Source of the DNA: Thermoplasmata archaeon
GTDB taxonomy: Archaea > Thermoplasmatota > SW-10-69-26 > JACQPN01 > JAJPHT01
Direction: 5' to 3'
Assembly: GCA_034667685.1 (NCBI GenBank)
Contig: JAXDQU010000081.1
Span: 1-36,942 of the forward strand
DNA length: 36,942 nucleotides
Position numbers and translations under genes: made by a program. Each line of letters starts with the position of its first letter. The first letter of the stretch is position 1. This document shows positions 1,909-29,884 of the stretch, one piece after another. Below the pieces are notes generated by a model. The model saw nothing but the letters and a program-made list of their open reading frames with translations, was not told the origin of the DNA and made no database searches.

Positions 1909-3051
1909 GTGCCGCGCTTCCCGCGCAACGTCGTGGCGCTCTCGATCACGAGCTTCCTGGCCGACGTGTCCGGCGAGATGCTCATGGCCGTGCTGCCCTT
2001 CCTGCTCCTGGCGCAGGGCGCGACGGGCTTCGACGTGGGAATCACGGGCGGCGTCTCGGACGCGGTCGGGCACCTGCTCAAGCCCGTCTTCGGCGCGTTG
2101 GCGGACCGCACGCGCCGGCGCAAGCCGCTGGTGGTGGGCGGCTATCTGCTCGCGGCCTCGGCGCGCTTCGGCATCAGCGCGTCGACGCAATGGTTCTGGA
2201 GCCTCGCCTACCGCAGCGCGGACCGCGTGGGCAAGGGCATGCGCACCGCGCCGCGCGACGCGATCCTTGCCGAGAGCGCGACGAAGGAGACGCGGGGACG
2301 GAGCTTCGGCCTGCACCGCGCGGCCGACACGGCGGGCGCCGTCGTGGGCGTGGGCCTCGCGCTGCTCGCGCTCCTCGTGCTGCGGGCCAGCGACGCGAGC
2401 ATCGTCTTCGTGGGCGCGCTCATCGGGCTCTCGACCGCGATCCCGCTCTTCTTCGTGCGCGACGAAGGCCCCCTCGCGCCGGCCGCGGCCAAGGCGATCG
2501 CCGAGCCGCTCTCGCCGCGCTACCGCCGCTATCTCGTCGTCGCGGCCATCTTCGCCGCGGGCAACGTGAGCTATCTTTTCTTCGTGCTGCGCGCCTCCGA
2601 CGCGGTGGGCGGCGCCGTCGGCGCGGTCGCGCTCTACCTCGTCTTCAACGTCGTCTACGCGGCGGGGGCGTATCCGATGGGGGCGCTCTCCGACCGCGTC
2701 GGAAAGCCTCGCGTCCTCGCGGCCGGCTTCCTGCTCTTCGCGCTGGCCGCGGCGCTCATGGCGATGCCCCCGACGTGGTGGCGCGCGCTCGCCGCGTTCG
2801 TCGTCATGGGCGGCTCCTTCGCGTGCGTGGACGGCGTCGAGCGCGCGTTCGCAGCGGACCTCGCGGGGAGCGTGGCGCGCAGCACGCGGCTGGGCGTGTT
2901 CCAGGGCGTCGTGGGCGTCGCGACGGTGCTCTCGGGCATCGCGGCGGGCCTGCTCTGGGACCAGGTCGCGCCGTGGGCCGCCTTCGCATGGGGCGCGGGC
3001 GTGGCGCTCGTCGCGCTGGCGGCGCTGGCCCTAGGCGGGTTCCTGCGATAG
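1909..3051 (+). CDS. MFS transporter
   Basis: About 12 hydrophobic segments; motif A GALADRTRRRK and GALSDRVGK; DRVGKGMRTAPRDA and GRSFGLHRAADTAGA signatures. Confidence 0.92.
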   Translation: MPRFPRNVVALSITSFLADVSGEMLMAVLPFLLLAQGATGFDVGITGGVSDAVGHLLKPVFGALADRTRRRKPLVVGGYLLAASARFGISASTQWFWSLAYRSADRVGKGMRTAPRDAILAESATKETRGRSFGLHRAADTAGAVVGVGLALLALLVLRASDASIVFVGALIGLSTAIPLFFVRDEGPLAPAAAKAIAEPLSPRYRRYLVVAAIFAAGNVSYLFFVLRASDAVGGAVGAVALYLVFNVVYAAGAYPMGALSDRVGKPRVLAAGFLLFALAAALMAMPPTWWRALAAFVVMGGSFACVDGVERAFAADLAGSVARSTRLGVFQGVVGVATVLSGIAAGLLWDQVAPWAAFAWGAGVALVALAALALGGFLR

Positions 3052-3561
3052 CAATTCGTCTAGGCTGGGCTCGATCCAGCCTTCGATGCGCGCGCTGGGC
3101 TCGCCCAAGACGGCCGGGTCGAGCATCGCCTCGATCCGCGGCGCGCGGGTCGCCGACTCGGCCTTGAGCCGCGCGAGCGTCTCCTCCAGGATCGCGATCA
3201 TGCGCTCGCGCGCGGGCGTCTGGCCGCGGTATTCGCTCGACCACCTGCGCCAGCCGGGCCGCCGGTGCGCGAGCTTCCACTTGGCGCCTTCGAGGAACGT
3301 CTCGTAGGTGTTCGCGTCGACCTTGCGCACGCGCTGGTGGGCGAGGAGCAGCCAGTGGAACATCGTCCCCGCGGGCGCGCCGCTTCCCTCGGGCGCGGCC
3401 CACCTCCGGCGCTTGGGGCTGCGGAACGCGACGGACCATGCGTCGGGCGAGAGCTTCGTCTCCTCCCAGCGCCCCTCCGTGTAGTCCCAGTCGTGGCGGC
3501 CGCCCACGCGCATGCCGGTGTAGCGGCGATCCCCGAACGACTTGGCGTCGTCGTAGCCCAC
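3031..3561 (-). CDS. Uncharacterised Trp/Arg-rich 'YTGMxVG-APEGSG' protein, paralog 1 (176 aa)
   Basis: Aligns over ~120 aa with 5072..5572 (YTGM.VG, EG.W.E.KL, APEGSGAP.GT, K.DAN.YET, G.KWK, AR.RMI.IL..TLA.L.AE); CTTCAAG at -30. Confidence 0.85.
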   Translation of the reverse strand: MGYDDAKSFGDRRYTGMRVGGRHDWDYTEGRWEETKLSPDAWSVAFRSPKRRRWAAPEGSGAPAGTMFHWLLLAHQRVRKVDANTYETFLEGAKWKLAHRRPGWRRWSSEYRGQTPARERMIAILEETLARLKAESATRAPRIEAMLDPAVLGEPSARIEGWIEPSLDELLSQEPA

Positions 3562-3593
3562 GCCGTCGGGTCAAGCCGCATCGGCTTGAAGAT

Positions 3594-4316
3594 TCAGGGA
3601 AGGGGAATCCCGAGAGTACGGAGCTGCGCCTCGGCCTTGGGCGCCCACCCCTTGTTCGCCTCGGGGCTCGCGGGGCTCGGGTGGAGCACGCGCCCGACCG
3701 GGATCGCCAGGCGCTCGGCCTCCAGCACGGCGCGGGCGCGCTCCTCCGCGTACTGGCCCACGCCCACGACGTGCGAGGGGCGCAGCGCGCGGATCGCCTC
3801 GGCGAGGTGCCGGTCGCACGCCTCCTCGATCGCGGCGTTGGCGCGCGCTCCGAGCTGAGGCGGCGTGAGGTTCTTGCCCTCCGCGTCGAAGAAGAGGAGC
3901 GGGCAGTAGTTCGCGATGAAGAATCGCCCGAAGAACGCGTCCGCGGTGCCGAAGCGCTCCGAGGCCCAGCCGTAGAGGCGGCTGCCCGAGGGCTCGCGGC
4001 GCGTCGTGCTGAAGCCGGTGACGGGGCGCTTGGGATGCAGCTTGGTGGGCTGGGCGTGCTCGCCCGTGATGCGCATCCAGTCGCGCACGTACACCACGTC
4101 GCCGAAGGGCACGCCCGTCTGCCCCATGCCCCACGGGCCGGGGTTCATGCCCACGAGGAGCGCGCGCCCCGCGGGCTGGGCATCGCCGTAGCGCTGGGCG
4201 TACGCGGCGTGCGCGTCCCAGGCGTACGCGAGCGGGTTGTAGACGTAGGGCGCTCCGGGCACGCGCAGGGCGTCGCACGCCTCACGCAGGCGGTGGGCCG
4301 CGGCGAGCAGGGACAC
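3594..4316 (-). CDS. smug1: SMUG1-family (family 3) uracil-DNA glycosylase, copy 1
   Basis: YVYNPLAYAW, GMNPGPWGMGQTGVPFG, REPSG, NYCPLLF, NLTP, HPSPASP. Confidence 0.93.
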   Translation of the reverse strand: MSLLAAAHRLREACDALRVPGAPYVYNPLAYAWDAHAAYAQRYGDAQPAGRALLVGMNPGPWGMGQTGVPFGDVVYVRDWMRITGEHAQPTKLHPKRPVTGFSTTRREPSGSRLYGWASERFGTADAFFGRFFIANYCPLLFFDAEGKNLTPPQLGARANAAIEEACDRHLAEAIRALRPSHVVGVGQYAEERARAVLEAERLAIPVGRVLHPSPASPEANKGWAPKAEAQLRTLGIPLP

Positions 4317-4322
4317 GGCCGG

Positions 4323-5012
4323 TCAAGGGGGCGACCCGGCAAAAAGGTCCTCGCCCCAGCCGCGGTTGTTGCGCGGGTTCGCGGGGCTCGGGTGGAGGGC
4401 GGCCTGGACGGGCACGTCGAGGTCGAGCGCGCGCAGCCGCGCCGCGACGTACGACCCGAGCGCCACGAGCCTCGTGGGCCGGAGCGTGGCGACGAGCGCG
4501 CGCATGTGCTCATCGCACGCGGGCTCGAGCGCGGCGCGCGCGGCGCGGGGCAGCTTGTCGGGCGTGAGGTTCGCTCCCTCCGCGTCGAGGAAGAGCAGCG
4601 GGCAGTAGTTGTCGACGAACCAGTCCGCGAAGAACGCCTGCGCGGTGCCGTAGCGCGCCCGCGCCGCGCCGTAGAGCCGCCGCCCGCTGGGGTCGGGCCG
4701 GCGCGACGCGAAGCCGAGGATCGGGAGCTTCGGGTGCGTGCGCGCGGGCGCGCTGACGGGGCCCTCGACGCCCATCCAGCCGCACGCCGTCTCGGGGTCC
4801 GCGAAGGGGACGCCCGTCTGCGCCATGCCCCAGAAGCCGGGGTTCATGCCCACGAGCACGCTGCGCCCGGCCCCCGCGCCGAACCTGCGCAGGTACGCCT
4901 CGTGCGGCGCCCAGGCGTAGCCGAGCGGGTGATAGCACCACGCGGCGCGCCCACCCGGAGGGAAGCCCGCGAGCGCGTCGCGCAGCCGCGCGGAGGCGTC
5001 GAGGAGGTCCAC
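4323..5012 (-). CDS. smug1: SMUG1-family uracil-DNA glycosylase, divergent copy 2
   Basis: YHPLGYAW, GMNPGFWGMAQTGVPFA, PDPSG, NYCPLLF, NLTP, HPSPANP. Confidence 0.9.
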   Translation of the reverse strand: MDLLDASARLRDALAGFPPGGRAAWCYHPLGYAWAPHEAYLRRFGAGAGRSVLVGMNPGFWGMAQTGVPFADPETACGWMGVEGPVSAPARTHPKLPILGFASRRPDPSGRRLYGAARARYGTAQAFFADWFVDNYCPLLFLDAEGANLTPDKLPRAARAALEPACDEHMRALVATLRPTRLVALGSYVAARLRALDLDVPVQAALHPSPANPRNNRGWGEDLFAGSPP

Positions 5013-5071
5013 GCGGCCGCAACGGGAGTTCGGCCAGAAGAGCCTATTCGCGGCGCCGCAAGCCGCCAGGC

Positions 5072-5572
5072 ATGCCGTACACGGGGATGAAGGTCGGCCG
5101 CGGCCACCACTGGACCTACGAGGGCGAGTGGATCGAGCGCAAGCTGGGCAAGGACACGTGGGAGGTGGACTTCCGCGCGCGCAAGACGCGCAAGGGCAAG
5201 GCGCCCGAAGGAAGCGGCGCGCCGGTGGGCACCGAGTACCTCTGGTTCTTCGCGCCCACGCTCCAGCGCGCCATGAAGCTCGACGCCAACGCCTACGAGA
5301 CGCGGATGACGGGGCTCAAGTGGAAGGTGGGCTTCCGCCCGGCCACCGCGAAGACCTGGGACTTCGAGTGGGCCAAGACGGGCGAGACGGCGCGCCGGCG
5401 CATGATCCGCATCCTGCGGCAGACGTTGGCCGATCTCGTGGCGGAGGAGAAGGCGGGCGAGCCGCAGCCCGAGCTTCCCGGGATCGAGATGGCGCGCCCG
5501 GCGCCCGCGCGGAAGCCCCGGAGCCGGAAGGCCAAGCCCGCGGCGCACGCGCGCAGCAAGGCGGAAGCGTAG
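5072..5572 (+). CDS. Uncharacterised Trp/Lys-rich 'YTGMxVG-APEGSG' protein, paralog 2 (166 aa), basic C-terminal tail
   Basis: Clear paralogy with 3031..3561; strong codon bias; tail ARKPRSRKAKPAAHARSK. Confidence 0.87.
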   Translation: MPYTGMKVGRGHHWTYEGEWIERKLGKDTWEVDFRARKTRKGKAPEGSGAPVGTEYLWFFAPTLQRAMKLDANAYETRMTGLKWKVGFRPATAKTWDFEWAKTGETARRRMIRILRQTLADLVAEEKAGEPQPELPGIEMARPAPARKPRSRKAKPAAHARSKAEA

Positions 5573-5590: not shown

Positions 5591-6988
5591 GTGGACGCGC
5601 CGCTGCACGAGATCGCGTGCGACAGGCAGGACGCCGCCGCGCCCGCGCTGGCGCACCACTGGGCCGACGGCAGCGTGGACCGCCTCTCGTTCGGAGACCT
5701 CGCGCTCGCCTCGCGCGCCCTCGCCTCGCGCCTCTCGGAGGCGGGCGTGCGCGCCGGCGCCCGCGTCGCGATCGCGCTGCCGCAGGCGCCGCTCCATCCC
5801 GTCGCGCACCTCGCCTGCTCGCGCGTGGGCGCGATCACGGTGCCGCTCTCGCCCATGCTCGGCGCCGACGCGCTGACGCCCCGGCTCGCGCGCGCCGCGC
5901 CAACGCTCGCCCTCGTCGACGCCTCGCGCGCCGAGGCGTTCCGCGCCGCCGATCCCGCGCTGCCGCTCTGGATCGCGCAGGGGCGCAACCTCCGCACGAC
6001 GCGCGGTACGCTCCCCGCCCGCGAGGCCGCGCCCCTCTCGCCGCGCCCGCTCTCCCTGTTCTTCACGAGCGGCACCACCGCCGAGCCCAAGTGCGTCGCG
6101 CTGCCCCGCGGCGTCGTCGCGGGCCGCATGCCGGGCTTCCGCCGCGCGCACCCCGAGGCCTCGCGCTTCTGGAGCCCCGCCGAGTGGAGCTGGATCGGCG
6201 GGCTGCACGACGCGCTCTTCGCGCCGTGGATCGCCGGCCTCTGCGTCGTGAGCGCGCAGCGCGAGGGCCGCTTCGACCCGGCCGCCGCGGCGCGCCTGAT
6301 CGAGGCCGAGCGCGTCGATGCCGCGTTCCTTCCGCCCACCGCGCTGAAGCGCTGGCGCGCCAGCGGGCTCCCCGCGCCGCGCCTCGCCTCGCTCCACGCG
6401 GCGGGCGAGCCGCTCCAGCCCGCGGCGCGCGCCTGGGCCGAGGCGGGAGCCGCCGTGCGCGAGGTCTACGGGCTCACCGAGTGCGCGTTCGTCCTCCTGG
6501 ACGGCGAGCCCGTCAACAGCGCGCGCGTCGAGCTGGACCGCGGGGAGGTCCGCGTCGCGGCGGGCGCGCCCACGATGATGCTCGGCTACGTCGAGGATGG
6601 CGAGGCGCGCCTGCCGCTCGACGCGGACGGGTTCTTCCGCACCGGCGACGAGGCGCGCGAGGAGGGGGGCCGCCTGCGCGTCGTCGGACGCCTGGATGAT
6701 ATCATCAAGTCGAGCGGCTACCGCATCTCGCCCGGCGAGGTCGAGGCCGCGCTCCTGCGCCACCCCGCCGTCGCCGAGTGCGCCGTCGTGGGCGTTCCCG
6801 ACGAGGCGCGCGGGCACGCGGTCAAGGCGTTCGTCAAGCTCGCGGACGGGGCGCGGGCCGACGCGGAGGCGCTGCGGGCGCACGTGCGCGACCACGCGGG
6901 CGCCTACATGACGCCGCGCGAGGTCGTCTTCGTGGACGCGCTCCCGCAGACCGTGAACGGGAAGCTGCTGCGCCGGCACCTTCGGTAG
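5591..6988 (+). CDS. AMP-binding acyl-CoA synthetase (ANL superfamily)
   Basis: FTSGTTAEPK P-loop, YGLTE, RTGD, GRLDDIIKSSGYRISPGEVE, LPQTVNGK. Confidence 0.92.
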   Translation: MDAPLHEIACDRQDAAAPALAHHWADGSVDRLSFGDLALASRALASRLSEAGVRAGARVAIALPQAPLHPVAHLACSRVGAITVPLSPMLGADALTPRLARAAPTLALVDASRAEAFRAADPALPLWIAQGRNLRTTRGTLPAREAAPLSPRPLSLFFTSGTTAEPKCVALPRGVVAGRMPGFRRAHPEASRFWSPAEWSWIGGLHDALFAPWIAGLCVVSAQREGRFDPAAAARLIEAERVDAAFLPPTALKRWRASGLPAPRLASLHAAGEPLQPAARAWAEAGAAVREVYGLTECAFVLLDGEPVNSARVELDRGEVRVAAGAPTMMLGYVEDGEARLPLDADGFFRTGDEAREEGGRLRVVGRLDDIIKSSGYRISPGEVEAALLRHPAVAECAVVGVPDEARGHAVKAFVKLADGARADAEALRAHVRDHAGAYMTPREVVFVDALPQTVNGKLLRRHLR

Positions 6989-7098: not shown

Positions 7099-7977
7099 GT
7101 GCGCCCGCGCGACCTGGCGGCCCTGGCGTTCGTCCTCGCCTCGTTCGCGGCCAACAGCCTCGTGACGCGGCACGTCGTGGGCTCGGGCCTGCTCGACCCG
7201 GGCCTGCTCACGTGCGTGCGCTTCGTCGCGGGCGCCGCGATGCTGGCGATCCTCGCGCTCGCCACCGGCCGCGCCGGCATGCTGCGCGTGGGCCGCGCGA
7301 ACGTCCTCCCCGCGCTCGCCCTGGGCGCGTACGCCTTCGCGATCTCGTACGGCTATGCGTTCATCCCCGCCGCCGCGGGCACGTTCGTCTTCTACGCCGC
7401 GGTCTTCCTCACGCTCGTCGCGTCGCAGCGCCGGGCGCCCACGGGGCGGCAGGCGGCCGGCGCGGCGCTGGCGCTGGCGGGGCTCGCGGTCCTCGCGGCG
7501 TCGAGCCTCGCGGGCGTCACCGCGCTGGGCGTCGCGCTCCTCGCCGCCACCGGCATCGCGTGGGGGCTCTACACCGCCGCGGGCCGGAGCCGGCCGGACG
7601 CGCAGGCGTTCACGACGGGCAACTTCGCGCTCCTCGCGCTGCCGCTCCTGGTCGCGGGCGGCGCGTTCGTGGCGCGCGGCGCCGTGGTCACGCCGGCCGG
7701 CCTCGCGTGGGGCATCGCCATGGGCGCGGGCACGACGGCGCTGGCCTACGTCGCGTGGTACGCGCTCCAGCGCCACCTCGGCGGAGCCCAGGCCGGCCTC
7801 GTGCAGCTCGCGATCCCGATCCTCACGAGCCTGGGCGCCGTCCTCGCGCTGGGCGAGGCGTTCCCGCCGCGCCTGGCCCTCGCCGCGCTCCTGGTGATCG
7901 CGGGCCTCGCGCTGGGCGTTGGAAACGGCGCGACCCGAAAGGTGGAGCCCCCGGCCGCGCCTCGACGCGGCGCATGA
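7099..7977 (+). CDS. EamA/DMT-family transporter
   Basis: About 10 TM in two repeats; FAANSL, RFVAGA, AWGLYT, LAYVAWY, LGE motifs; GTG start with CATTTT at -30. Confidence 0.88.
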   Translation: MRPRDLAALAFVLASFAANSLVTRHVVGSGLLDPGLLTCVRFVAGAAMLAILALATGRAGMLRVGRANVLPALALGAYAFAISYGYAFIPAAAGTFVFYAAVFLTLVASQRRAPTGRQAAGAALALAGLAVLAASSLAGVTALGVALLAATGIAWGLYTAAGRSRPDAQAFTTGNFALLALPLLVAGGAFVARGAVVTPAGLAWGIAMGAGTTALAYVAWYALQRHLGGAQAGLVQLAIPILTSLGAVLALGEAFPPRLALAALLVIAGLALGVGNGATRKVEPPAAPRRGA

Positions 7978-8228: not shown

Positions 8229-11132
<2,904 letters not shown>

Positions 11133-27045: not shown

Positions 27046-28002
27046 ATGGCCGCCGTCGCCCTCCAGGGCGTCGCGCGCCGCTACGACGATTTCGCGCTCC
27101 ACCCCACGAGCCTCGACCTGCCCGCGCGCAGCTTCACGGTGCTCCTGGGCCCCAGCGGCTCGGGCAAGACGACGCTCCTGCGCATGATCGCCGGCCTGGA
27201 GCGCCCCGACGCCGGTGATATCACGATCGGCGGGCGCGACGTCACGGCGCTTCCGCCCGAGGCGCGCGGCGTCGGCCTCGTCTTCCAGGAGGGCGCGCTC
27301 TTCCCGCACCTCGACGTCGCCGGCAACGTCGGCTTCGGCCTGCGCGTGCAGGGCGTCCCCGCCCGCGAGCGCGCCACGCGCGTGGACGAGGCGCTTGCGC
27401 TCGTGGGGCTCGCGGGCTTCGGCGCGCGCAAGGTGGCGCGCCTCTCCGGCGGCGAGCGGCAGCGCGTCGCGCTCGCCCGCGCCCTCGCCCCGCGCCCCGC
27501 CGTCGTCCTTTTCGACGAGCCCCTCGCGAGCCTCGACCGCGCGCTGCGCGAGGAGCTGCGCGTCACGCTGCGCCGCGTCCACGACGAGGCCGGCCTCACG
27601 AGCGTTCTCGTCACGCACGACCGCGAGGAGGCGCTCGCGCTCGCCGATCGGCTCGTGCTGATGCGCGAAGGGCGCGTCGTCGAGGAGGGCGCGCCGCGCG
27701 CCATGTTCGAGCAGCCGCGCACCGCGTTCGCCGCGCGCTTCCTGGGCGCCGCCAACGTCATCGGCGACAAGCTCGTCCCGCCCGACGCCATCCGGCTGAC
27801 CGAGGACGCGCGGGGCGACGCCGTCGTGCTCGCGCGCCGCTTCGCCGGCTTCCACGAGGAGGCGCGCGTCCGGCTCGCCGACGGCACGGAGATCGACGCA
27901 CGCGGCGCGGTGGGCACGCTCCCCGCGGCGGGCGCCAAGGTGCGCGTGGCGTGGGACGAGGCGAGGGCGAGGAAGCCCCAGCCGGCTGATCCGCGGGATT
28001 GA
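27046..28002 (+). CDS. thiQ: ABC transporter ATP-binding subunit
   Basis: GPSGSGKT, VFQ, LSGGERQRVALARAL, DEP, VTHD; directly follows the permease with GGAGG upstream. Confidence 0.88.
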   Translation: MAAVALQGVARRYDDFALHPTSLDLPARSFTVLLGPSGSGKTTLLRMIAGLERPDAGDITIGGRDVTALPPEARGVGLVFQEGALFPHLDVAGNVGFGLRVQGVPARERATRVDEALALVGLAGFGARKVARLSGGERQRVALARALAPRPAVVLFDEPLASLDRALREELRVTLRRVHDEAGLTSVLVTHDREEALALADRLVLMREGRVVEEGAPRAMFEQPRTAFAARFLGAANVIGDKLVPPDAIRLTEDARGDAVVLARRFAGFHEEARVRLADGTEIDARGAVGTLPAAGAKVRVAWDEARARKPQPADPRD

Positions 28003-28027
28003 AGGTACCGGCCTGGGCTTCCCGGGC

Positions 28028-29884
28028 GTGCTCCTGTTCGAGGGATCGAGCCCGCGCTTCTGCGAGGAAGCCGAGGCGGGGCGGCTCGCGTCACACCTGT
28101 CCCAGCGTTACAGGATGGTCCTCGGCCACACGCCCTCCCCGGGCGAGGTCAGGGCCTGGCGGAACTCGCTCGCGGCGTTCGCATCGCGTCTGCGTGCGGT
28201 CCCGAGCGCGACCGCCCATGTGCTGGTCGAATACCAGCTGCCGCTCTCGTCGAGCCGGCTTGACTGCATGGTGCTCGGCCACGATGCGGCTGGGAACGCG
28301 AACGCGGACATCGTCGAGCTCAAGCAGTGGGAGCAGGCGGACGAGTCACCGTTCGAAGACTGCGTATACGTCTTCGGAGAGCACAAGCTCCACCCGAGCG
28401 CGCAGGTCGGAGGATACACGGAGTACCTCCGCGACACGCTTTCCGTCTTCCAGGATGCGCCCGGCATCGACCTGCGCGGATGCGCGTACCTCCACAACCT
28501 GCGGAGCGTGGAGGTGAGCATCCTCGGGCTGGAGCGTTATGCGCCGCTCTTGCGGGACTATCCCATCTACGACGAGCGTAGCGAGGGAGCGCTCACGGAG
28601 CGGCTCGCGGAACGGATCGGCCAAGGAGACGGGGAGGAGCTGTTCGCGAAGGTCATGCGCAGCCGCTATCGCCCAAGCCTGAAGCTCCTGGACCACACGG
28701 CGCGAATGATCGAGGGAGACCCGATCTACCGCCTGCTCGACAACCAGCAGGTCGCGTACAATGCCGTCAAGTCCGCGGTCGAGAAGGGCATCAGCGGCGC
28801 GGCCACGCGCTCGGTCTTCGTCGTCGAAGGCGGGCCCGGCTCCGGCAAGAGCGTCATCGCGATGCGGCTCTTCGCCGACATGGCGCGGCGCGGCTACAAG
28901 GTCAACCACGCGACGGGCTCGAAGGCATTCACCACCAACGTCCGGGCGCGCGTCGGGCGCAAGGGCCAGGTCTTGTTCCGTTACTTCAATCAGTTCATGG
29001 CGGCCGCGCCGCAGATGCTGGATCTTCTCATCTGCGACGAAGCCCACCGCATCCGCGCGACGTCGAACAACCAATACACCGCCAGCGACAAGCGCTCCAC
29101 CCGGAGCCAGGTCGAGGAGCTCATCGCGGCAAGCCGCGTCTCCATCTTCTTCCTGGACGCGAACCAGACCGTGCGCCCCGGAGAGGTCGGCTCGACAAGC
29201 CTCGTCCGCGCGACAGCCGAGGCGATGGGCGCAAGCGTGACGACGCTTCGCCTGGAGTCCCAGTTCCGGTGCGCGGGAAGCCAATCCTACGTCGAATGGG
29301 TCGAAGGCGCCCTCGGGTTGCGCGAGGGCGCGAACCTCGGTTGGCGAGAGGCAGGGGACTTCGACTTTCGTCTGGTCGACTCTCCCGGCGAGATGGAGCG
29401 GCTCCTGCGCGAGCGCATCGCGAAGGGCGACTCGGCCCGCATGGTCGCCGGATTCTGCTGGCCTTGGTCCCGAACGCCCGGCTGGGACCTCCCCGAGGAG
29501 GTCGTGATCGGGGATTGGCGGAAGCCTTGGAATCCCTTTCAGATCGGGACCACGCCCGCCCAGGACGCGTACTTCCTGTGGGCCTCGACCCCCCGCGGAT
29601 TCGACCAGGTCGGCTGCATCTACTCGGCGCAGGGATTTGAATGGGATTACGTCGGCGTGATCGTCGGGCCTGACCTCGTGTGGCGCGAGGGGCGATGGGT
29701 CGCCGATCGCGCGAAGAGCGAGGACACGGCAGGCGCGAGGCGCGAGAAGGACCCCGCGCGCCTGGCGAGCCTGCTTGAGAACACGTATCGCGTCCTCTTC
29801 ACCCGCGGCATGCGCGGCTGCTTCGTCTACTGCTGCGATGCCCAGACGCGGGAGCACTTCGAGGCGATGCTCCGGGGGATCTAG
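28028..29884 (+). CDS. DUF2075 (Schlafen group 3-like) SF1 helicase with N-terminal PD-(D/E)XK-like domain
   Basis: EYQLP..RLD...IVELKQW; Walker A GGPGSGKS; Walker B ICDEAHR; QFRC.GS; GCIYSAQGFEWDYVGV; NTYRVLFTRG. Confidence 0.9.
   Translation: MLLFEGSSPRFCEEAEAGRLASHLSQRYRMVLGHTPSPGEVRAWRNSLAAFASRLRAVPSATAHVLVEYQLPLSSSRLDCMVLGHDAAGNANADIVELKQWEQADESPFEDCVYVFGEHKLHPSAQVGGYTEYLRDTLSVFQDAPGIDLRGCAYLHNLRSVEVSILGLERYAPLLRDYPIYDERSEGALTERLAERIGQGDGEELFAKVMRSRYRPSLKLLDHTARMIEGDPIYRLLDNQQVAYNAVKSAVEKGISGAATRSVFVVEGGPGSGKSVIAMRLFADMARRGYKVNHATGSKAFTTNVRARVGRKGQVLFRYFNQFMAAAPQMLDLLICDEAHRIRATSNNQYTASDKRSTRSQVEELIAASRVSIFFLDANQTVRPGEVGSTSLVRATAEAMGASVTTLRLESQFRCAGSQSYVEWVEGALGLREGANLGWREAGDFDFRLVDSPGEMERLLRERIAKGDSARMVAGFCWPWSRTPGWDLPEEVVIGDWRKPWNPFQIGTTPAQDAYFLWASTPRGFDQVGCIYSAQGFEWDYVGVIVGPDLVWREGRWVADRAKSEDTAGARREKDPARLASLLENTYRVLFTRGMRGCFVYCCDAQTREHFEAMLRGI

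Follow-up and report, generated by a model that had tools for sequence, protein, structure and literature searches.

Base excision repair in bacteria and archaea is commonly portrayed as the work of a DNA glycosylase, an apurinic/apyrimidinic (AP) endonuclease, a polymerase and a ligase, with few dedicated helpers. AP endonuclease stimulates the turnover of SMUG1, a family-3 uracil-DNA glycosylase (UDG), and SRAP proteins (HMCES/YedK) shield abasic sites. Here we describe a cluster of DNA-repair genes from a Thermoplasmatota archaeon living in soil (genome G000, 3.48 Mb, 99% complete), located in a stretch of 36,942 nucleotides that we refer to as the window (GenBank contig JAXDQU010000081.1, here C81). 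Two SMUG1 genes, SMUG1a and SMUG1b, are flanked in it by two paralogous genes, X1 and X2, for members of a protein family that we call X. A gene pair of X and a DNA glycosylase recurs in unrelated lineages despite changed flanks, the glycosylase being SMUG1, Fpg/Nei or a family-4 UDG. X is linked to three glycosylase types in three lineages, is bound to none of them and most often stands alone. Strongly conserved, without a convincing relative among solved structures and adjoining three mechanistically different glycosylases, X is a concrete candidate for a missing repair helper, which might hand over the product, protect the abasic site or provide targeting to single-stranded DNA. AP endonuclease and SRAP proteins resemble X in this proposed role only, the handling of an abasic or single-stranded glycosylase product, whereas X has no sequence or fold match to either, no conserved Cys and no metal-site motif. 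If X were unrelated to repair, the locus would be an ordinary repair cluster with a hitch-hiking gene.

Fpg/MutM/Nei (H2TH) is a base-excision enzyme too, and in Chitinophagaceae it is encoded directly beside X. Its fold and its chemistry, that of a bifunctional glycosylase-lyase, are unrelated to those of SMUG1; the window encodes no such enzyme, and the linkage is to X rather than to SMUG1. Among 201 evenly sampled Chitinophagaceae genomes, counted without regard to shared ancestry, X is present in 20, one Fpg/Nei subfamily in 27 and both in nine. In eight of these nine genomes X immediately precedes Fpg/Nei on the same strand, the ninth carrying the two genes on two small contigs, and in one further genome X adjoins fragments of Fpg/Nei. 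The cultured strains encountered (Longitalea, Niastella, Chitinophaga) have no Fpg/Nei next to X. The genes flanking the pair vary between loci, save for one closely related pair of genomes, and the linked Fpg/Nei proteins share 53-67% identity. The pair seems to be decaying in two genomes: X is split by a TGA codon in one (G188:C5 418337-418821), and in the other an intact X accompanies Fpg/Nei in fragments (G172; L151 5660-6035). A gene for a phosphatidylethanolamine-binding protein (PBP/YbhB-type) follows X-Fpg/Nei at two Chitinophagaceae loci (L153, L155) and lies directly beside X at one Flavobacteriales and two Myxococcota loci (L014, L019, L032), which makes it a second recurrent neighbour of X.

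A survey of diverse loci, the best 80 of 287 X loci confirmed in species-representative genomes, places the Chitinophagaceae pairs in a wider frame. By Pfam, glycosylases account for four of 150 immediate neighbours of X and for none of 131 second neighbours. Fpg/Nei lies directly downstream of X at three Chitinophagaceae loci (L072, L074, L086; the L072 protein matches the solved Fpg structures 4cis and 1tdz at E about 2e-18) and 1.7 kb away at a fourth (L056), and in a Methanocella bin (L043) the gene directly upstream of X encodes a family-4 UDG. Since X occurs in just one of 151 genomes of the class to which Methanocella belongs, the X-UDG pair there is a single event. Second neighbours include single cases of PolA, a UvrB-interaction-domain protein, Ham1, DinB and DUF488, about as many as would be expected by chance. 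The initial annotation of the window had looked to glycosylase enrichment around X as a test; glycosylases do occur among first and not among second neighbours, but SMUG1 was found at none of the 80 distant loci, all in other phyla, within up to 8 kb of X.

The link between X and SMUG1 was seen among relatives of the archaeon. X1 directly follows SMUG1a in three of the five genomes of the genus (G000, G001 and G004). G001 (L123) displays the order uvrA-SMUG1b-SMUG1a-X1 on one strand, with uvrA 48 bases 5' of SMUG1b, and a gap of 27 bases and a putative overlap of about 11 bases (the start codon being uncertain) at the other junctions. G002 keeps the order methyltransferase-SMUG1 and has no X, and in G003 (L102) SMUG1 is followed by the gene for the AMP-dependent synthetase/ligase (AMP-ligase) with no X2 between. 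A metagenome scan with X2 alone gave no relative, while a scan with alignment A2 gave one locus, L122, where the first 13 codons of a SMUG1 gene stand head to head with an X2-like gene (73% identity), which is followed by an AMP-ligase gene (60% identity), the order being that of the window. Contig records extend this picture: for 10 of the 26 X2-type proteins with contig data, the source contig is identical in size to that of a SMUG1a-type protein, while 120 shifted-size controls gave a mean of 0.71 and a maximum of four matches. The source matches as well in the five pairs that were looked up, and one further pair makes eleven. Since the shared contigs include ones of 1.2-3.5 kb, X2 and SMUG1 are probably adjacent on them. 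An X2-type protein thus appears to be encoded on the same contig as SMUG1 in 12 or more metagenomic relatives, of which L122 was seen directly and at least 11 are inferred.

G000 carries a third paralog, X3, on another contig (G000:C51 8572-9072, - strand). X3 shares 35 bases with an overlapping Prim-Pol gene and follows an uncharacterised 273-aa gene after one base; a gene for a WGR-containing ATP-dependent DNA ligase is 2.4 kb away. These genes belong to a run (C51 7353-18222; L006) in which all genes are on the - strand and third-position GC is 0.78-0.88, compared with mostly 0.92-0.98 in neighbouring genes. Besides Prim-Pol, X3, several uncharacterised genes and the WGR ligase, the run holds a gene for a 684-aa phage-type zinc-finger protein and, at the contig end, part of a C5 DNA methylase gene, which gives it the appearance of an integrated mobile element. 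In the tree of the family, all Thermoplasmatota copies of X form one clade (support 100). On account of this clade we reject independent acquisition of X1, X2 and X3; the three therefore stem from duplications within the lineage. X3 forms a long branch within the X1-type clade, which is shared with other Thermoplasmatota, whereas the X2-type clade (30 rows, SH-aLRT 100) has a long stem branch and is known from G000 and metagenome proteins only. Three tree rows (L025, L060, L086) are probably wrong-frame open reading frames (ORFs); they were kept in the tree and excluded from the isoelectric point (pI) statistics given below.

X1 and X2 share 47% identity over 152 residues (E 5e-34), and X1 has orthologs of 54-65% identity in G001, G004, G008, G010, G014, G015 and G017. 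X2 lacks about 13 N-terminal residues that are otherwise conserved in the family, and no in-frame start codon lies upstream. Neither protein has a match in Pfam at E <= 0.01 or in NCBIfam at E <= 1, X3 has none in Pfam at E <= 1e-4, and X1, X2, X3, SMUG1a and SMUG1b have none at E <= 0.01 in PADLOC (library dated 2023). No PDB sequence matched X2, the best match of the family profile A1 had an E of 0.9, and the family was not found in the extracts available to us of the literature on glycosylase accessory proteins. In a profile search of 1.84 billion representatives (50% identity), X comprised 691 clusters at E <= 0.001, 439 at E <= 1e-10 and 128 at E <= 1e-30; with only 691 clusters among so many representatives the family is rare. 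It spans bacteria, archaea and fungi: the 80 loci come from Acidobacteriota, Bacteroidota, Myxococcota, Gemmatimonadota, Nitrososphaerota, Planctomycetota, Chlamydiota, Legionella and others, and intron-bearing, fungal-looking members exist. Sequences of the fungal members P0356 and P0381 end after an HWLIV motif, as if an intron came next. X is usually a single-copy, stand-alone gene, rarely present in more than one copy per genome and without family expansion. Twenty-five columns, rich in Trp, Tyr, Lys, Arg and Gly, are invariant among 22 diverse bacterial and archaeal sequences, and an APEGSG (APEGSGAP) loop is conserved. The median pI is 9.96 over 120 members, many bacterial members carry tails rich in Lys, Ala and Pro, and X1, X2 and X3 contain no Cys. 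The copy at L072 and other Chitinophagaceae members (P0055, P0093, P0100) are extended at the C-terminus by a further domain, some 70 residues long and containing conserved Cys (…QTCHDGVC…GWKMD…), which has no Pfam match and is absent from the archaeal copies.

AlphaFold models of X2 (22 alignment rows; predicted local distance difference test, pLDDT, 82.4) and X1 (70 rows; pLDDT 86.7, at or above 90 for 122 of 176 residues; predicted template-modelling score 0.74) both show long beta hairpins and then a helix, with four long strands and one helix in all. Foldseek against the PDB returned best E values of 1.7 and 2.1 for the two models, and VIA-align against 48,161 chains best Z scores of 3.7 and 3.6, with no chain at Z >= 5; the rows listed in these fold searches barely covered the N-terminal hairpins. 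A search of the ESM Atlas gave no usable feature match, its rows having template-modelling scores of 0.29-0.39 and coming from a poor Atlas model. The initial annotation had read X1 and X2 as paralogs that are basic, Trp-rich and beta-rich and had proposed structure prediction followed by Foldseek; the alignment, the pI, the models and the negative Pfam, NCBIfam and PADLOC searches bear out this description of a protein without a curated family, and the structural search yielded no convincing solved relative. PC4/Whirly-type single-strand DNA binders consist of a four-stranded sheet and a helix, and small basic nucleoid proteins have tails rich in Lys, Ala and Pro. X resembles the former in the order of its secondary structure, four strands and then a helix, and the latter in its pI of about 10 and in the histone-H1-like tails of many bacterial members. 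Membership in either group is not supported, since neither fold search returned such a protein: PC4/Whirly-type and HU-type binders were absent among the rows listed for both models.

Fused forms of X are few, and none is joined to a glycosylase. Three longer proteins were found, of which P0245 has a partial FAD_binding_4 match beside X and P0246 looks like a read-through gene call because its X part starts at a Met, residue 620. In the third, P0247 (670 aa, from the fungus Bifiguratus adelaidae), the X domain has a DinB-family domain on one side and a RING finger on the other. A Pfam scan of 26 representatives of extra length detected a domain in P0263 alone. This protein (272 aa) has the X core followed by two Rho_N/SAP-like helix-extended-helix motifs, the sole fusion to a known nucleic-acid-binding module that was found.

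How might X contribute to repair? The reading that we favour, tentatively, is that X binds nucleic acid and acts in or after base excision. The older form of the locus was likely uvrA-SMUG1b-SMUG1a-X1 on one strand, as in G001, whereas in G000 the + strand block X2/AMP-ligase/EamA lies between uvrA and SMUG1b. SMUG1a and SMUG1b would excise uracil and related damaged pyrimidines to leave abasic sites, and X would bind damaged or single-stranded DNA, or the abasic product, acting alongside DNA glycosylases, or immediately after them, in base excision repair rather than as a SMUG1-specific subunit. The main ground for this reading is the recurrent linkage of X to three glycosylase types. The pI of about 10, the Lys/Ala/Pro-rich tails and the Rho_N/SAP-like fusion of P0263 are hints that suggest such a binding role, and the repair-type surroundings of X3, with the Prim-Pol overlap and the nearby WGR ligase, are counted in its favour. 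It is also possible, though we hold this to be more doubtful, that X defines a novel class of accessory proteins in base excision repair whose fold is not represented in the PDB; these would recognise single-stranded or abasic DNA and be paired with whichever glycosylase is encoded alongside, in cassettes that would be mobile between soil bacteria, archaea and even fungi.

A number of observations weigh against a role of X in base excision. No glycosylase is an immediate neighbour of X at 76 of the 80 diverse loci, and no neighbour family at all occurs at more than nine of them. The Chitinophagaceae counts include shared ancestry, the Methanocella case rests on one contig of one metagenome bin, and most of the X2-SMUG1 linkage is inferred from equal contig size and source, DNA having been seen for L122 only. 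The three repair-adjacent paralogs of G000 are not independent acquisitions, given the single Thermoplasmatota clade. Family and fold searches revealed no known DNA-binding fold or motif in X. Among 41 related genomes, X is present in 13 and a strong SMUG1 in 13, yet only five hold both, eight have X only, eight SMUG1 only and 20 neither; in G015 and G017 the two genes are both present on different contigs. Eight X1-type orthologs elsewhere in the phylum adjoin unrelated genes, such as those for peptidases, FBPase and radical SAM enzymes. A dedicated X-SMUG1 module, which the initial annotation had put forward, finds no support either in these relatives, with their X-only and SMUG1-only genomes and separate contigs, or at the distant loci, none of which has SMUG1 and most of which have no glycosylase beside X.

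Much the same evidence bears on the idea, unlikely in our view but to be taken seriously, that the synteny is coincidental or inherited and that X is a general nucleoid-associated or stress protein, or a protein unrelated to DNA; its adjacency to glycosylases would then stem from common descent in a few lineages and from the tendency of accessory genes to cluster. This would account for the absence of SMUG1 from all 80 distant loci, for the heterogeneous neighbours, for the failure of X and SMUG1 to co-occur among the 41 relatives, for the mostly single, stand-alone occurrence of X, and for the arrangements methyltransferase-SMUG1 without X in G002 and SMUG1-AMP-ligase without X2 in G003. It is not evident, however, why coincidence should place X directly upstream of Fpg/Nei in eight of nine genomes when the flanks differ and Fpg/Nei identity falls as low as 53%, why glycosylases of three families should stand beside X in three distant lineages, or why glycosylases should occupy four of 150 first-neighbour and none of 131 second-neighbour positions. 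A more specific proposal, which we consider improbable, is that X is a small DNA-binding transcription regulator of the adjoining gene, in which case X2 would control SMUG1b-SMUG1a-X1. The small size and basic nature of X, the divergent arrangement of X2 and SMUG1b across 59 bp, and neighbours that vary across genomes, as is typical for local regulators, speak for it. Yet 25 invariant columns in 22 sequences amount to a very high conservation for a local regulator, and neither a helix-turn-helix, a ribbon-helix-helix nor another regulator fold was found in X by family and fold searches. Moreover, X1 and the Chitinophagaceae X run in the same direction as the glycosylase rather than divergently, and one X copy per genome, rarely more, without expansion of the family, does not fit such a function.

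That X is an obligate physical subunit or an inhibitor of SMUG1, acting in the pairs X1-SMUG1a and X2-SMUG1b, is very unlikely, appealing as the symmetry of two X genes flanking two SMUG1 genes may be, and even though the long-stemmed X2-type clade travels with SMUG1 in many relatives. X1-type orthologs occur in five genomes (G024, G027, G035, G037 and G040) in which the SMUG1a query has no UDG-superfamily match, and in three more (G008, G010 and G014) the X1-type ortholog is accompanied by a distant UDG only, on another contig. The family also pairs with the structurally unrelated Fpg/Nei, and X is basic, unlike the UDG inhibitors that mimic DNA, which are acidic. A complex prediction for SMUG1a (alignment A3) with residues 1-135 of X2 (A2), run twice and without controls, scored 0.00 and has no bearing on binding. 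Lower still in probability, we place the notion of an anti-virus module in which the glycosylase attacks modified-base viral DNA and X senses or holds the DNA. Defence glycosylases are known, X (20/201) and Fpg/Nei (27/201) are patchy accessory genes in Chitinophagaceae, and X3 lies in the region of low third-position GC that resembles a mobile element, with Prim-Pol, the phage-type zinc finger and part of a C5 methylase. All the same, none of X1, X2, X3, SMUG1a and SMUG1b matches PADLOC, searches of 72,556 plasmid and 50,697 phage records gave no X, other defence genes are absent next to the module, and SMUG1 adjoins uvrA or uvrC in this class, as expected for housekeeping repair. The PADLOC result and the uvrA or uvrC neighbours likewise speak against the suggestion of the initial annotation that the locus attacks viral DNA containing uracil or 5-hydroxymethyluracil. 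On balance, we prefer a nucleic-acid-binding X that acts in or after base excision.

The SMUG1 genes themselves encode repair enzymes of an ordinary kind, here in an unusual host and in the company of nucleotide-excision genes. SMUG1a aligns end to end with the solved SMUG1 enzymes 5H93, 1OE4 and human 9GGS (E 2.5e-67 to 4e-56), the match to Geobacter metallireducens SMUG1 (5h93, E 2.5e-67) covering residues 22-237 and that to Xenopus SMUG1 (1oe4, E 6e-60) the full length, and it has at least 7993 homologs at E <= 1e-20. SMUG1a and SMUG1b share 51% identity over 225 residues (E 2e-74). UDG motif 1, GMNPG, holds the water-positioning Asn and motif 2, HPSP, the catalytic His. The positions G56-M57-N58-P59-G60, N136-Y137-P139 and H212-P213-S214-P215 (SMUG1a numbering) are invariant in all 50 rows of an alignment that includes SMUG1b, hence both copies keep these motifs. 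G001 and G004 have separate orthologs of SMUG1a (69-70% identity) and SMUG1b (57%), which indicates that the SMUG1 duplication is old. Four readings of the initial annotation are thereby upheld: the order and strands of the four genes, present as ORFs where it had placed them, the intact GMNPG, NYCP and HPSP motifs (seen in the 50-row and the pairwise alignment), the presence of two intact family-3 UDGs in an archaeon (PF03167, the 5h93 and 1oe4 matches and the motifs) and the age and retention of the duplications. SMUG1a and SMUG1b are functional-looking family-3 UDGs, and from their sequences they are predicted to excise uracil and related damaged pyrimidines. The SMUG1b ortholog of G004 (G004:C206 4056-4754; L118/L124) contains one in-frame TGA and may be a pseudogene or reflect a sequencing error.

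The window copies thus resemble known SMUG1 in their full-length alignment and in GMNPG, NYCP and HPSP, and differ from it in their archaeal host, in being two diverged tandem copies and in lying beside uvrA and X genes. Strong SMUG1 matches (E <= 1e-57) occur in 11 of the 21 genomes of the class and in two more of the 41-genome phylum sample, so that an enzyme otherwise treated mainly in connection with animals and some bacteria is widespread within one class of archaea. The nearest named homologs carry the label 'Candidatus Thermoplasmatota archaeon'. A full-text literature search retrieved no paper that combines SMUG1 with Thermoplasmata, and two reviews, in the portions available, describe SMUG1 in animals and bacteria. 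Two genomes of a sister family, G015 (L138) and G017 (L139), have a single SMUG1 beside uvrC, with a PIN-domain gene between the two in G015, a linkage that parallels that to uvrA in the genus of the window. A DUF488 gene adjoins SMUG1 in G002 (L135 5524-6195) and is the second neighbour of X at a Polarisedimenticolia locus (L025 5085-5477); DUF488 may be another repair-linked protein.

The layout of the locus is given in the table. SMUG1b, SMUG1a and X1 look like a single transcription unit because the gaps between them are just 6 bases (SMUG1b-SMUG1a) and 32 bases (SMUG1a-X1). X2, AMP-ligase and EamA, with EamA last, form the + strand block that separates SMUG1b from uvrA in G000. The sole AT-rich patch between SMUG1b and X2 is CCTATTC (5043-5049), 23-29 bp 5' of the X2 ATG by reading of the sequence, and might serve as a putative promoter.

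Table. Genes and intergenic region of the repair cluster, in window coordinates.
Feature	Position	Strand	Description
X1	3031..3561	-	176 aa; ORF; last gene of the co-directional SMUG1b-SMUG1a-X1 run
SMUG1a	3594..4316	-	240 aa; family-3 uracil-DNA glycosylase; PF03167
SMUG1b	4323..5012	-	229 aa; diverged tandem paralog of SMUG1a; PF03167
Divergent intergenic region SMUG1b/X2	5013..5071	.	59 bp
X2	5072..5572	+	166 aa; ATG start at 5072; X2-type clade
AMP-dependent synthetase/ligase	5591..6988	+	PF00501 and PF13193; 18 bases 3' of X2
EamA-type transporter	7100..7977	+	PF00892; start codon uncertain
UvrA	8229..11132	-	ORF

The archaeal RNase P RNA of G000 scores 86.2 bits, the Rfam cut-off being 84, which together with the labels of the nearest SMUG1 homologs supports an archaeal host. 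Farther along the window, a 694-aa protein (27800-29884, +) contains a Schlafen group-3 helicase domain (E 1.4e-86) and has weak PADLOC matches to PDC-S41, Nhi and AbiO; it is possibly a defence gene, unrelated to X and SMUG1.

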